Virus genome (UHGV): UHGV-1493261
Source: a virus
Length of the DNA stretch: 64,000 nucleotides
Direction: 5' to 3' (one strand)
Of this stretch, positions 3,726 to 53,937 are shown one piece after another. A model generated the notes under the pieces. It was not told the origin of the DNA and did no database searches. It saw nothing but the letters and a program-made list of their open reading frames with translations. Every line of letters starts with the position of its first letter. The stretch's first letter is position 1. Both the position numbers and the translations under genes were made by a program.

Positions 3726-4031
3726 ATGAAACCGTTTATCGAATATTTTAAAGAACAAGCCGCTAAACCTCAGACCCATGCTGGTGTCCAGGGTAAGACC
3801 GTATCCATCACCAAGCAAGCTGACGGCACCCAGTGGTGTTCCGGCGCTACCGTGACCCAGATCACTCCTGACAATCAGGCGGATGTCTACAACCTGGAGT
3901 TAACCAACGGCAACACCATCAAGGTGAAGCTGACCCCAGACCAGACTCACGGTATCTCCCAAGGTCAGGAAGTCGTTGCTGTCCATGACGGTTTCGAATT
4001 CTTCTTTGGCAAGCCTGCCGACAAAGACTAA
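3726..4031 (+). CDS. hypothetical late protein (101 aa)
   Basis: ORF with SD GAGGAG; preceded by a late promoter. Confidence 0.55.
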   Translation: MKPFIEYFKEQAAKPQTHAGVQGKTVSITKQADGTQWCSGATVTQITPDNQADVYNLELTNGNTIKVKLTPDQTHGISQGQEVVAVHDGFEFFFGKPADKD

Positions 4032-4062
4032 GTGAAACCATCAAGATGACTCTTGATCATAA

Positions 4063-4091
4063 TCCCCCTAAATACAGGGGGATTTCTTTTT
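4063..4091 (+). terminator. terminator hairpin TCCCCC-taaataca-GGGGGA + T-rich tail; loop carries a TAAATA late-promoter-like core (4067-4074)
   Basis: Inverted repeat plus TTTCTTTTT. Confidence 0.5.
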
Positions 4092-4105
4092 CTGAGGACA
4101 ACATC

Positions 4106-4459
4106 ATGGTCAATGCGAGTATTTTCATCAACCGTGGACTGCTTGCTATAGCCCACTCTCATGCCTTGCACTTCGTTACAACGTCCTATGCCAAGCACAA
4201 GGCACTCGGGGAGTTCTACGGGGATCTAGAGGACTTGCTGGACACGTTTACCGAAGCATACATCGGTGCAGGTGGTCAGTATGTTCCATCATTCGAGAAT
4301 ATCAAATTGTACAACCCAGACCCTATCTCCTATATTAACAGTGTGGTGATAGACGTCGATGGCATCTACAAGCAGTGTGACTCCCACCTTCAGAGCACTC
4401 TTGACGATATCAAGACACTGTGCTATCAGACGATCTACAAACTGAAGCAGCTGTCGTAA
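4106..4459 (+). CDS. hypothetical protein (117 aa)
   Basis: ATG at 4106 with GAGG 9 nt upstream; the track start at 4046 lies inside the terminator hairpin and is unlikely. Confidence 0.5.
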   Translation: MVNASIFINRGLLAIAHSHALHFVTTSYAKHKALGEFYGDLEDLLDTFTEAYIGAGGQYVPSFENIKLYNPDPISYINSVVIDVDGIYKQCDSHLQSTLDDIKTLCYQTIYKLKQLS

Positions 4460-4516
4460 GTCAATACGAAATAAAGGCATATAATTTTGCTCATTATTCA
4501 CCAAAAGGAAAGGACA

Positions 4517-49616: not shown

Positions 49617-50948
49617 CTATAGGCCAAGAGCCTTTTCAAGGTCATTAAGGTCTTCAGTGTAAAGATCGATGTCCTCTTTCTTACTTAATTCCTTGTGCTG
49701 TGCTTCAAGGTTCTCAATCTGCTTCAGTAGGCGCTCACGGGCGTCCAGAGTAATAGACGACAGAGGCATCTTGAACAACTCGTCAAGATCACCACCAAAG
49801 TCCGGGTAGTCCTGCATGAACAGAGACTTCAGCACGTCAATCTTTTGGCGGAGATCAACACGCGTCGCCCATTCAATGAACACCGCCCGGTCACCCAGCT
49901 TGCGGATCCTGTCTGCCATGTCCTTCAACAGATACTGGCGACGGTCTTCGTACCGTGACAGGCGATAATTGAAGAACGGCAGCAACATGTCCCGCCAACC
50001 AGAATAACGATGAATAACACCGTCTTCATCCCAGGCCGTCCAAACAGGCTTGGTGGCTGAATACAGCTTGAACATCTGCTCAACCTGCTCGTCACTCAGC
50101 TTAGAGAGTTCGCCGCGCTTAAACACAACCGTGATATCCCAGCCATCTTCGGTCGTGTCGTTGGCGTACTCGGTCAGGATACCTGCCTTATACAGAGGCA
50201 ACAACACCTTGGTCTCATAAGTCTTGGCGAACCAACCCACTGGGACTTCGGTGATATGCAGGGTCGTGGCATTGACCCGACGGAAGATACCGCGACTGTA
50301 TGCTCTTCCTTCCTCAGTATAGCCTGTCTCCCCTTTGTAGCCGTTCCAGTACGGTTTTAAGTCTTTCGGGTCTTCGCCACGGAGAAGCGCTCTCAGGGCA
50401 CTGAGCACGGACTTAACGCAATGACACGGGGTGTCGGTAGAATATCCGGTGCCGATACCATTGATCCCATTCACCAGGAACATGGGTAGGATGGGCAGAA
50501 AGAACTTCGGCTCCAGTCTTTCTTCACCAAGGTAGTTGTATTCCAAGATACCCTCATCCTCCTTACGGAAGATCTTGCGGATAACATCAGATACAGCGAC
50601 GGATATGTATCGGGCAGATGAAGCATCACGCCCCATGATAGAACCAAACTGGCCATCGCGGTCAAAGTACGGGATGTTGTTCGTGCCTGGGAACCCCTGA
50701 GCCATGTTCACGATAGTGCCGCTCATGTTCTCACCACCAGACTTGTAGTTGGTGCGAGCGGCGGCGAACATACCAAGGCGGTCAACGATCTCCTCCTTGT
50801 TGTACTCAAGAGCAGCAAAGAGGATCTTGCGCTGGCTTGGCTTGAGGCTGTCAATCAGCTGAGGGATTTGACGGATGCTGTTGACCACAGAAAACTGCTT
50901 ATGGTCAGTGTTGACAAAGTCCGTTACAGTAATGCTCTTGGCAACCAT
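49617..50948 (-). CDS. 52: DNA topoisomerase II medium subunit, T4 gp52-like (GyrA-like)
   Basis: Matches my recollection of T4 gp52 (IDSLKPSQRK, catalytic-Tyr region AAARTNYKSGG); start at 50948 or 51011. Confidence 0.85.
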   Translation of the reverse strand: MVAKSITVTDFVNTDHKQFSVVNSIRQIPQLIDSLKPSQRKILFAALEYNKEEIVDRLGMFAAARTNYKSGGENMSGTIVNMAQGFPGTNNIPYFDRDGQFGSIMGRDASSARYISVAVSDVIRKIFRKEDEGILEYNYLGEERLEPKFFLPILPMFLVNGINGIGTGYSTDTPCHCVKSVLSALRALLRGEDPKDLKPYWNGYKGETGYTEEGRAYSRGIFRRVNATTLHITEVPVGWFAKTYETKVLLPLYKAGILTEYANDTTEDGWDITVVFKRGELSKLSDEQVEQMFKLYSATKPVWTAWDEDGVIHRYSGWRDMLLPFFNYRLSRYEDRRQYLLKDMADRIRKLGDRAVFIEWATRVDLRQKIDVLKSLFMQDYPDFGGDLDELFKMPLSSITLDARERLLKQIENLEAQHKELSKKEDIDLYTEDLNDLEKALGL

Positions 50949-50949
50949 C

Positions 50950-51399
50950 TTACCCACGATAACCTCCCACTTCATATGGATCGACAATGTAGTCCACAAT
51001 CCAAGTTTCAAGTTTTACCGCCAGAGGAGATTTGTCTTCTTCATCCAGGGTGTAATATCTTTTGCCAGTACCCTTCAGTGGGTCGTACACAACAAGTTTT
51101 TCATGACGAGTGTCTAAGATGATCTGGTGCAATAACCCTGGCGTTGCTGGACTTGGCACGCAAAGCAGATAAACATAATCATGATAGATGGTGGCAGTTT
51201 GGTTGATCCCTTTCCCTTGCAAGAACGGAACCCCTTCCATACAAAGAACGTCACCAATCGTGGTTTCCCAATTCGCGAAACTTTCATGCCATATTTCAGC
51301 AACCTCGGCGACCGGACGCTCAAGTAACATCGCCAGGCACGTTGACATACACGTGTCTTTTGTTGGCTGCATCTGATGAGTTAGTGGATATTCCATCAT
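50950..51399 (-). CDS. peptidase C39-like (papain-fold cysteine peptidase) domain protein
   Basis: QMQPTKDTCMSTCLAML (Gln/Cys box) and HEKLVVYDP (His box); ATGA overlap with the gp39 stop. Confidence 0.5.
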   Translation of the reverse strand: MMEYPLTHQMQPTKDTCMSTCLAMLLERPVAEVAEIWHESFANWETTIGDVLCMEGVPFLQGKGINQTATIYHDYVYLLCVPSPATPGLLHQIILDTRHEKLVVYDPLKGTGKRYYTLDEEDKSPLAVKLETWIVDYIVDPYEVGGYRG

Positions 51400-53306
51400 T
51401 CATCCTCGGTTTCAAATAGACAAACATCGCTAAACCAGGTTTTGCGGTAATCGGCGGCCTCATCACCGAAGCCATTCTTCAGTGACTGTTGATAGCCATC
51501 GTCCAGCGTGACCGTCGTAGTATACGCATCCAGGTTGTTTAGAATACGCTTGAAGTCTTCAGTGCTGTTGCCACCCAGACCTTTCAGATATTTCTTCTTC
51601 GTGATCTTCTTGGCATCGGGGGTCTTCAGGAACTCCTCATACTCGGTGTTGTTCATGAACTCATGCATCACCTTACCACACCACACGCGCATATAAGGAG
51701 TACGCAGCAGCTTCAGCCTGCCCTGACGGACGTACTCTGGCCAGAACGTACAATACAGGGTGATCAACAACCCACGGATGTGAATGCCGTCGTCGTCCGC
51801 ATCGGTAGCCACAACAGTCTGTGGGTAACGGCTGATGTCAAGGGGCTGGCCTGGTACTGCACCACCGTGGATGGTACACAGATTCTTGAACTCTTCGTTT
51901 GCCATCACCTTTGAGCGCGGGGCGTTCAAACAGTTGATGAACTTACCACGAAGCGGGAACAACCCGATCTTCTTGGTGTCGCGGGCGTTCAGGATAGGAT
52001 TGGAGGCACTATCACCCTCTGTCAGCAACAGGGAGCATCCGCTGCGGTCACCACGGGCGGTCGCCGGGTAATACTTCTCAATCTCACGATAATCCCGCTT
52101 GCTGATGTCCTTCTTGGCCTTTTCAAACTCAGCATCATCCTGCTCATTGCGCAGGGAAGCCAGTTCTTTACTCAGACCAGCCGTAACGAACTCAAGCGCC
52201 TTGCGGATCAGTTTATCGCTGGGCTTGTACGACGTACCGAACTGGCTGACAGGAGTGGTCATGCGCTCCTTGGTCTGGCTGTCAAAGCGTGGGTTGTTGA
52301 TGTCGGCAGCGATGAACAAGGACATGTGGTTCTTGATCATTGCTGGCTTCAGCTCGGTCTTGAACTTCTTCACCAGCTGGGGACGAATCGCTGCCACGAT
52401 CTGGTCGGCAACATAATCAACGTGAGGACCACCGATGTGGGTGGCAATAGAGTTCACGTATGATGCGTGCATGAACGTACCGGATGAAGGGGCTACAGCA
52501 ACAGACCAATCCCCGGTTTCGTCAACAGCCGAGCCAGCATGGAAGTAATCAACGAAATGGCCAAAGCGGTCAATCCGGATTTGCTTCCCGTTGAGAACAA
52601 TCTTCAGGCGCGGGTTACACGCAGCCACTTCAAACGCGCGGCGATAGATCATCAGCAGGTTGTTCTGGTCAAGTCCTTTGACGCCCAGGCGAGCATAGTC
52701 AGGGATCCAGGCGATGGATGTGCCAGGACTGTTCACGTTGCTGATGACTGGGTTAGATTTCTTGCTCATGTTATCTTCAAACGTCTGAGTATAAGACTTC
52801 TTGCCGTCATTAGTCGTGACGCGGAACCATTTGGAGAACACGTTGACGAGGGACGCCCCTTCGCCATTCTGACCACCGGACTTCTGGTTGTTGTACTCTT
52901 CGTCTTCGTCGTTGAAGTTCGATCCCGCATATAGAGAGCCGAACAACATTTCAGGAAGCCACTCGTTGGTGACGCCATGCTTGACCACAGGGATACCCCC
53001 GTTGTCAGCAACGATGATTTGACCGTTCATCGGGGAAACTGTGACGGTGATTTCCGTCAGGGATTTGCCCTCAGGGGTCTTGCTGTGGTCAACACAGTTG
53101 GTGATGATTTCATCAAACTGTTTGATCAGCGCGGGGGAGTACTCAAAGTTGTCACGGAAGATGACTTTGTCCTTAGTTGGGTCATACACCCACACCGTCC
53201 CCACAGACGAACGAATACTGCCCAGATGACGCTCTGGGCGGAGTAGGATATGCTCAACGTGAGTGAGCTTCTTGTACTTGCGTTCAATATCAATTTTGTT
53301 GGACAT
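51396..53306 (-). CDS. 39: DNA topoisomerase II large subunit, T4 gp39-like (GyrB-like ATPase plus TOPRIM)
   Basis: EHILLRPERHLGS; GHKL ATPase; TOPRIM LLLTEGDSA. Confidence 0.85.
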   Translation of the reverse strand: MSNKIDIERKYKKLTHVEHILLRPERHLGSIRSSVGTVWVYDPTKDKVIFRDNFEYSPALIKQFDEIITNCVDHSKTPEGKSLTEITVTVSPMNGQIIVADNGGIPVVKHGVTNEWLPEMLFGSLYAGSNFNDEDEEYNNQKSGGQNGEGASLVNVFSKWFRVTTNDGKKSYTQTFEDNMSKKSNPVISNVNSPGTSIAWIPDYARLGVKGLDQNNLLMIYRRAFEVAACNPRLKIVLNGKQIRIDRFGHFVDYFHAGSAVDETGDWSVAVAPSSGTFMHASYVNSIATHIGGPHVDYVADQIVAAIRPQLVKKFKTELKPAMIKNHMSLFIAADINNPRFDSQTKERMTTPVSQFGTSYKPSDKLIRKALEFVTAGLSKELASLRNEQDDAEFEKAKKDISKRDYREIEKYYPATARGDRSGCSLLLTEGDSASNPILNARDTKKIGLFPLRGKFINCLNAPRSKVMANEEFKNLCTIHGGAVPGQPLDISRYPQTVVATDADDDGIHIRGLLITLYCTFWPEYVRQGRLKLLRTPYMRVWCGKVMHEFMNNTEYEEFLKTPDAKKITKKKYLKGLGGNSTEDFKRILNNLDAYTTTVTLDDGYQQSLKNGFGDEAADYRKTWFSDVCLFETEDE

Positions 53307-53355: not shown

Positions 53356-53937
53356 TTATAGACCAAATTTGCTGCGCCACTTTTCAACCTTGTGTTCAAT
53401 AGCGTGCTCCACTTTAATGCGAGTGGCCATCAAAGAGGAGCCACGGATCGCCCCTTCCCCACACCCCATGCGCGCAGCATGCTTGATTAGGTCATTGACA
53501 AGATGATCCAATCTGTCTTGACTGCGATAAGGCTGGTTGCACAATCGGATAATCCGGCCATGATAATGATGGATAAGATTCAGATGCTTTTGAGGATCAC
53601 GATCAATCAGACGGAACCAGTCTTCTTCCAACAGATTAGAAGAAATATCGTTCACCGTCGCCATGTGGTTGATGACAGAGTCGATCATTTCGACCTTGTT
53701 CAGAGAGCCGCGCATTTGGACGTCGTCATAATCCATGACGTACATAAGGTCAATGGCAGAGATAATGACATCAGCAACTTCGCCATTCAACGGCTCGGAA
53801 GATGCTATGCCATGAAACACATCAGACAGTTCACAGATCTCTTCACCTAGTTTGTTCAGAACAAACACAGGCGAACGGTCTGGGGTATGAGCAGTGCAGT
53901 CATAAGAAGTGTCGACGATAGTGTGTAGAAATTTCAT
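53356..53937 (-). CDS. MazG-like nucleotide pyrophosphohydrolase (tentative)
   Basis: EExxE-like LGEEICELSDV and EVADVIISAID. Confidence 0.35.
   Translation of the reverse strand: MKFLHTIVDTSYDCTAHTPDRSPVFVLNKLGEEICELSDVFHGIASSEPLNGEVADVIISAIDLMYVMDYDDVQMRGSLNKVEMIDSVINHMATVNDISSNLLEEDWFRLIDRDPQKHLNLIHHYHGRIIRLCNQPYRSQDRLDHLVNDLIKHAARMGCGEGAIRGSSLMATRIKVEHAIEHKVEKWRSKFGL

Follow-up and report, generated by a model that had tools for sequence, protein, structure and literature searches.

The window analysed here is a stretch of 64,000 nucleotides from the virus genome UHGV-1493261, and our subject is a small open reading frame (ORF) on its minus strand that is predicted to encode a cysteine peptidase. 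The ORF is placed exactly between a GyrB-like and a GyrA-like gene, which code for both subunits of a T4-type topoisomerase II. The window phage belongs to the Ackermannviridae; the 3.8-kb stretch around the protease ORF is 98.2% identical to Escherichia phage AV101 and is matched by 279 phage records. An earlier reading made from the letters of the window alone (the sequence-only reading) had reported an ATG-started ORF of 149 residues between the two topoisomerase II genes, and this ORF is present. Residues are numbered throughout according to the 149-residue version, which begins at the first ATG. The three genes of the locus are as follows.

50950..51399, minus strand: protease ORF including the TAA stop, 149 residues from the first ATG (ORF list, PHROG 4049 match, homologues)
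51396..53306, minus strand: upstream flank gp39, topoisomerase II large subunit, 636 residues, equivalent of T4 gp39 plus gp60 (Pfam and PDB matches)
49617..50948, minus strand: downstream flank gp52, topoisomerase II medium subunit, GyrA-like, 443 residues, equivalent of T4 gp52 (Pfam PF00521, DNA_topoisoIV, E 4e-65)

The ORF matches PHROG 4049 ("unknown function") from end to end (E 6.6e-52; residues 5-143 against profile positions 2-142 of 145), with homologues up to E 1e-92. By tblastn, relatives were found in 194 phage records, which include Ackermannviridae, Queuovirinae (e.g. CAjan), Pseudomonas phage SM1, phiVC8-like Vibrio podophages and jumbo Erwinia phages. A profile search of the family, with E <= 1e-3 as the criterion, returned at least 1277 clusters at 50% identity, nearly all of them 135-160 residues long; the 225 family sequences that were retrieved have a median length of 148 residues, and only five exceed 200. 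When the ORF was compared with the allele of phage Se-J, the ratio of nonsynonymous to synonymous divergence (dN/dS) was 0.17. The ORF is a real gene under purifying selection, far beyond a chance ORF. Public records nearly all describe the product as a hypothetical protein, and three automatic annotations read "C39 peptidase". The family is large, phage-restricted and experimentally uncharacterised.

The large subunit upstream of the protease ORF is GyrB-like and carries the Pfam domains HATPase_c, DNA_gyraseB, Toprim and TOPRIM_C. Its ATPase domain (residues 1-244) matches eukaryotic topoisomerase II with E 2.5e-42 to 1e-36, and more weakly T4 gp39 (~1e-19) and bacterial GyrB/ParE (~1e-7 to 1e-10). 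The ATP-lid reads LYAGSNF in the phage gp39 versus LLTSSNY in the eukaryotic enzymes and LHAGGKF in GyrB.

Fold and catalytic residues

The sequence-only reading had assigned the ORF to the C39-like cysteine proteases of papain fold, and profile-profile comparison supports this assignment. When a profile of 91 family sequences was aligned by hhalign with a broad profile of C39 peptidase domains, made from ComA and seven divergent domains of transporters, a probability of 95.7% was obtained (E 9.9e-9, score 54, 107 columns), with Q11, C17, H91 and D106 of the phage family in register with Q11, C17, H96 and D112 of ComA. A narrow profile made of ComA only gave 36.5%. The AlphaFold2 model computed from the 91-sequence alignment has a predicted local distance difference test (pLDDT) score of 89.7 and a predicted template modelling (pTM) score of 0.86, and in it an N-terminal helix begins exactly at C17 and is followed by a β-sheet. 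The predicted structure is a papain-like alpha+beta fold, as the sequence-only reading had expected, with the putative nucleophilic cysteine at the N-terminus of a helix, and the top Foldseek matches of the model were PCAT1 (E 1.7e-3). The residues in question are encoded at the following positions.

51367..51369, minus strand: Gln11 codon, predicted oxyanion-hole residue (Q in 221 of 222 non-gap members; aligned to ComA Q11)
51349..51351, minus strand: Cys17 codon, predicted nucleophile at the N-terminus of helix 17-26 (221 of 222 non-gap members; AlphaFold2, hhalign)
51337..51339, minus strand: Cys21 codon, which completes the C-x3-C-L-A-M signature common to transporter C39 domains (motif comparison)
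51127..51129, minus strand: His91 codon (LHQI), predicted catalytic His (226 of 226 members; hhalign)
51079..51084, minus strand: Asp106-Pro107 codons, D106 being the predicted third catalytic residue (each in 226 of 226 members; hhalign)

At the sequence level, Q, C, H and D are present in the order and spacing of C39 peptidases. The Gln/Cys box QMQPTKDTCMSTCLAML, which had been picked out from the sequence, lies at residues 9-25. The accompanying His box, HEKLVVYDP, is likewise present (residues 99-107) and includes the invariant D106-P107, but its histidine was misassigned: H99 is not conserved, being mostly D, E or G across the 226 family members, and the predicted catalytic His is H91, 15 residues before D106. 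It is the catalytic Asp, not the catalytic His, that lies inside this box. In the mechanism we propose, C17 would be the nucleophile at the helix N-terminus, H91 would act as general base, D106 would orient the His and Q11 would form the oxyanion hole. Three further invariant positions are specific to the family, namely H38, S83 in a (V)PSLN motif, and Y116.

The second cysteine of the C-x3-C motif (window 51337-51351) is conserved in 211 of the 226 members. We considered this motif as a feature shared specifically with the C39-type toxins that are taken up below and rejected the idea, since CvaB and other transporter domains also carry C-G-x-A-C-L-A-M. In one of these toxins, StbD-CT, the residue equivalent to family Cys21 is Cys187, which affects redox-dependent auto-processing (bioRxiv 10.64898/2026.05.07.723447).

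The C39 domains of the AMS/PCAT bacteriocin ATP-binding cassette (ABC) transporters (ComA, PCAT1, LahT, CvaB; PF03412/PF13529, MEROPS C39, clan CA) resemble the phage family in the profile-profile homology given above, in the layout Gln-x5-Cys ... His-x14/15-Asp-Pro at residue numbers near-identical to those of ComA, and in the C-x3-C-L-A-M signature. Unlike them, the phage protein is a stand-alone polypeptide of ~148 residues that is neither fused to nor encoded beside an ABC transporter (none lies near the protease gene in the contexts seen), and its family falls below the Pfam gathering scores and has the invariant residues H38, S83 and Y116 of its own. We are highly confident that the protein is a C39-like thiol hydrolase. 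The family is a distinct, free-standing one in the C39-like branch of the papain-fold thiol hydrolases, outside the Pfam thresholds, and we infer that its members have peptidase activity with a Gly-Gly-like specificity.

Occupied and empty sites between gp39 and gp52

The protease gene is carried by 38 of the 279 related records (~14%). Phage fGh-Ecl02, the only empty-site phage in which flank identity was measured at the protein level, has gp39 and gp52 proteins 99.4% and 99.1% identical to those of the window, and its empty site has the junction GAGGATGAA-TAA-G-ATGGTT. Compared with fGh-Ecl02 the window has exactly 447 nt extra, and TAAGATGGTT of the empty site also follows the insert in the window. 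Phages LHE287 and YX22 are also without the protease gene. The G+C content at third codon positions (GC3) is 0.447 in the ORF versus 0.631 and 0.655 in the flanking genes. Synonymous divergence (dS) from Se-J is 0.37 for the ORF, 1.39 for gp39 and 0.88 for gp52, and the value for the ORF, far below those of its flanks, points to recent transfer. Against Salmonella phage Maynard, by comparison, the synonymous sites of the ORF are saturated and amino acid identity is 62%, with flanks at 96% (gp39) and 87% (gp52). Judged from these alignments, the divergence of the ORF disagrees with that of its flanks in both directions.

No fewer than three alleles are found at the site, namely the window type, the CRW-SP2 type (~70% amino acid identity) and the Maynard type (62%), and they differ in how their junctions are constructed. 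A comparison of Maynard (3990-4460) with window 50940-51410 shows that the Maynard protease gene starts with the TAAGATGGTT that begins gp52 at empty sites, using its ATGGTT, and that the N-terminus of gp52 is a new one, MTTITV... versus MVAKSITV.... The insertion points of the window and Maynard alleles thus lie one motif apart, suggesting separate insertion events or a remodelled junction. A Maynard-type allele is also found in MN871475 ('Pseudomonas phage Pa-sanjiao', 158 kb), with the same identity as in Salmonella Kuttervirus phages; this record comes from the Se-* phage submission series, and its Pseudomonas aeruginosa host label looks doubtful.

The same gp39/gp52 site is filled in Salmonella phage SKML-39 (NC_019910, 2849-3421) by a 190-residue gene annotated as an HNH endonuclease, which has a sub-threshold match to an AP2 domain; this makes the junction an insertion hot spot that takes more than one kind of occupant. 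A counterpart is mobA, which lies between the T4 topoisomerase genes 39 and 60. Free-standing homing endonuclease genes are inserted between conserved genes of T4-like phages (PMC2988022), and the protease gene resembles them in being a short gene precisely between topoisomerase II genes, in being present or absent among near-identical phages and in a divergence incongruent with its flanks, as well as in sharing its site with the HNH/AP2 endonuclease of SKML-39. No nuclease domain was detected in the protease ORF by Pfam, PHROG or fold search. The gene thus cannot drive its own homing, and its spread must use flank recombination or hitch-hiking. We propose that the conserved gp39 and gp52 genes may act as recombination arms by which Ackermannviridae acquire, lose and exchange the cassette. 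The sequence-only reading had called the gene an accessory insertion, and the carrier count, the 447-nt difference, the GC3 value, the incongruent dS and the HNH gene of SKML-39 all bear this out; that it is an accessory, exchangeable cassette we regard as very probable. The position between the topoisomerase genes more likely marks a hot spot of insertion or recombination than a task dedicated to the phage topoisomerase.

The junctions of the window allele hold three features that bear on its expression.

51394..51396, minus strand: second in-frame ATG, the probable true start, with a one-base overlap with the gp39 stop (TGATG) and a product of 148 residues (Se-J, AV101, P0001, Shine-Dalgarno spacing)
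51403..51407, minus strand: GAGGA, a Shine-Dalgarno-like motif inside the 3' end of gp39 (read directly from the sequence)
50946..50952, minus strand: downstream junction TAA-G-ATG, i.e. protease stop (TAA 50952-50950), one spacer base and gp52 ATG (50948) (alignment to empty-site phages)

The first ATG (51399-51397) does overlap the gp39 TGA as ATGA, as had been noted from the sequence. The second ATG (51396) is nevertheless the more likely start of the protease because its distance from GAGGA is 6 nt, versus 3 nt for the first ATG, because Se-J has ATA at the position of the first ATG and because the homologues in AV101 and the metagenomic P0001 are annotated at 148 residues. That the ORF ends just before the start of gp52 had been described correctly, and TAAGATGG of this downstream junction also links gp39 to gp52 in the empty-site phages. 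The conserved gp52 start in those phages is the ATG at 50948 (MVAK...). In the AV101 and Se-J records the gp52 start is a GTG 9 nt upstream, which gives an 8-nt overlap with the protease ORF (L001 3017-4357; L015 111-1451; window 50946-50960). Counts of promoters or terminators of the protease gene's own equalled the chance expectation. The GAGGA motif and the TGATG overlap are consistent with translational coupling to gp39, and the protease would be read from the topoisomerase II operon mRNA, coupled in translation to gp39 (TGATG) and to gp52 (TAA-G-ATG).

Genomic contexts and possible targets

Elsewhere the protease gene is found among small early genes that form arrays, or within modules for nucleotide and DNA metabolism. 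An all-against-all BLASTP of its neighbours from nine phage lineages gave no matches and thus no conserved partner gene (substrate, immunity or regulator). Early-gene arrays of this kind, without a conserved partner, are typical of accessory host-interaction genes. A family-wide link to phage-encoded topoisomerase II was considered and rejected, as phiVC8 has a homologue of the protease but no tblastn match to gp39 or gp52. The ~60-kb Queuovirinae are likewise not known to encode a topoisomerase II.

These contexts bear on two further explanations. One is that the protease matures or regulates a phage substrate, such as the topoisomerase II subunits, with which it shares an mRNA, or a double-glycine-leader peptide. 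It would agree with the tight translational coupling in the topoisomerase II operon of two genera, and the processing of leader peptides is the classical role of C39 domains. Against it, phages with 99%-identical gp39 and gp52 do without the gene, which argues that topoisomerase function is independent of the protease; furthermore, no neighbour is conserved across the family, homologues occur in phages that have no topoisomerase II, and no double-glycine-leader ORF was found among the ATG-started ORFs of at least 40 residues in the window. We regard processing of a phage protein as distinctly improbable. The other explanation is a cell-wall hydrolase, that is, a CHAP- or PeiR-like amidase or endoisopeptidase that aids lysis or entry. 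When PDB sequences were searched with the family profile (hmmsearch), PeiR (E 0.3) was returned together with Cpe1 (E 0.62), and all matches were non-significant. The gene is situated in DNA-metabolism and early regions, not in lysis cassettes, and the sequence shows no sign of a signal peptide, a membrane segment or a domain for wall binding. A wall-directed function is hard to credit.

The existence of phages with near-identical gp39 and gp52 that lack the gene indicates that the protease is not needed for the phage topoisomerase, and an optional factor in host interaction would fit the patchy distribution of the gene, the divergence of its alleles and its horizontal exchange. We therefore favour a sequence-specific endopeptidase that presumably acts in the cytoplasm and presumably on a host protein. 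For the target, a host rather than a phage protein seems the better choice, with some reserve. As a whole, the statement that the gene encodes a functional, accessory, cytoplasmic C39-like cysteine peptidase of ~148 residues with a host-protein target is in our judgement probably correct. Such an enzyme would act early in infection, cleaving a host protein specifically, once or a few times, at a site of small residues (Gly-Gly-like), and may serve as an optional factor for manipulating the host or countering its defences. The catalytic tetrad is intact and under purifying selection, and the gene is patchily distributed and horizontally exchanged; in combination this suggests a weapon for use inside the infected cell that a phage can do without.

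Several results weigh against this reading. In single-sequence searches, the Pfam family Peptidase_C39_2 (PF13529) was matched at 13.4 bits versus a cut-off of 24 (E 0.12, residues 3-28 only), and NCBIfam and PADLOC gave nothing significant; of 91 family members scanned singly, 12 touch PF03412, the best no better than E 0.006. The match to C39 profiles that the sequence-only reading had suggested looking for was thus not cleanly obtained with the single sequence, which stayed below threshold, but was found in the profile-profile comparison of the family. A literature search found no study of the PHROG 4049 family and no biochemical data on any member, and no substrate is indicated by the sequence, neighbours or fusions of the family. 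Finally, the persistence of the protease at the same site in two genera makes a functional link with the topoisomerase possible.

A more specific proposal concerns the host topoisomerases. Cpe1 and StbD-CT are C39-type peptidases that are active in the cytoplasm without a transporter and cut GyrB at G101/G102 and ParE at G97/G98 (PMC12136450; bioRxiv 10.64898/2026.05.07.723447). Given this precedent, the phage protease might cut the ATP-lid (HAG|GK) of host GyrB/ParE and so bring the maintenance of the host chromosome to a halt, and the phage topoisomerase II, whose genes flank it on both sides, would then take over DNA topology. Alignment of the family with a Cpe1/StbD toxin profile gave a probability of 93.0% (E 3.4e-7, score 43) with the catalytic residues in register, and Cpe1 (an E. 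coli type VI secretion system toxin) is one of the non-significant PDB sequence matches mentioned above. Like Cpe1 and the Citrobacter CdiA-like StbD-CT, the phage protein is an isolated C39-type domain without a transporter, and the Q/C/C/H/D positions are those of StbD-CT (StbD Q177, C183, C187, H258, D275). In two genera the protease gene forms part of the phage topoisomerase II operon, the Gly-Gly of the GyrB lid is missing from the phage enzyme, and the gp39 ATPase subunit is far closer to eukaryotic topoisomerase II than to GyrB. Phage inhibitors of host DNA gyrase are known, e.g. Igy of LUZ24 and Gip of a Corynebacterium phage (PMC10886550). If the phage protease acted on gyrase, it would resemble these in being a small early phage protein that disables a host type II topoisomerase, and would differ from them as an enzyme differs from stoichiometric binding inhibitors; it has no common sequence or fold with them.

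On the other side, the family is no closer to the toxins (93%, score 43) than to the transporter C39 domains (95.7%, score 54). A closer relationship to Cpe1/StbD had been considered from the contrast between 93% and the 36.5% of the ComA-only profile and was rejected in view of the value obtained with the broad C39 profile. The phage genes also differ from the toxins in coming from lytic phages and in having no PAAR, VgrG, Rhs or CdiA delivery module, no entry domain and no adjacent immunity gene. Most carriers of the family, e.g. phiVC8, have no topoisomerase II of their own, carriage by ~14% of Ackermannviridae does not fit a core takeover programme, and the location is explained by the hot spot, which also takes an unrelated HNH gene. 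We consider destruction of host topoisomerases improbable. The ATP-lid motif of gp39 was tried as a test of this proposal and rejected: AGS occurs in both the window and Maynard, which are carriers, and can be expected in the empty-site phage from its 99.4% gp39 identity. StbD-CT still cuts single G-to-S mutants (bioRxiv 10.64898/2026.05.07.723447); with such tolerance, and with AGS probably there regardless of carriage, the motif does not discriminate.

The distribution of the gene would suit yet another activity inside the cell. Gly-Gly is the motif that C39 enzymes recognise, and it also forms the end of ubiquitin-like tails. The protease might accordingly serve as a deconjugase or counter-defence isopeptidase that removes or clips a Gly-Gly-linked ubiquitin-like modifier or conjugate of anti-phage systems, or it might cleave a defence protein directly. 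Besides the shared Gly-Gly, this proposal draws on the scattered distribution of the gene, the divergence of its alleles, its horizontal exchange and its early-gene surroundings, all of which are typical of counter-defence genes. It is opposed by the lack of any PADLOC match to defence-system components, by deubiquitinase-like structures scoring below C39 peptidases and by the literature, in which no phage precedent was found. On this evidence we think a deconjugase unlikely. The broader reading, a cytoplasmic peptidase with a host-protein target, is the one we prefer.

C39 peptidases are known as leader-peptide processors attached to bacteriocin exporters. Since 2025 C39-type peptidases are also known in a second role, as toxins with which bacteria attack one another by cutting gyrase and topoisomerase IV (PMC12136450; bioRxiv 10.64898/2026.05.07.723447). 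The present family adds a third setting, a large group of free-standing C39-like enzymes in many unrelated lytic phages. Fold and chemistry were known already; what is new is a phage-borne, free-standing C39-like family of such size without a characterised member. Identification of the substrate would reveal a new mechanism of counter-defence or host takeover, or the use of the topoisomerase-cleaving strategy by phages. If cleavage of host topoisomerases proved true, a virus would for the first time be seen to destroy the type II topoisomerases of its host enzymatically, and a large phage family that is still uncharacterised would be tied to a toxin mechanism of recent discovery. The question is directly testable with natural isogenic pairs, as AV101 and the window phage carry the gene and fGh-Ecl02, with flanks 99% identical, and LHE287 do not.

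Recurrent domain fusions were not found in the family, and the fusions that do occur are idiosyncratic (YunG-like, zinc ribbon, MazG-like). One of these, P0175, is a protein of 272 residues from a metagenomic contig (L022 5001-5819) in which a MazG-like N-terminal region is joined to the protease domain; it is present on 5 contigs. Its N-terminal region shows a weak likeness (E 1e-4) to the MazG-like gene of the window at 53356-53937. The neighbours of P0175 are genes for an Rv2179c-like exonuclease, dCMP deaminase, PhoH and ribonucleotide reductase, which echoes the DNA-metabolism setting of the window.

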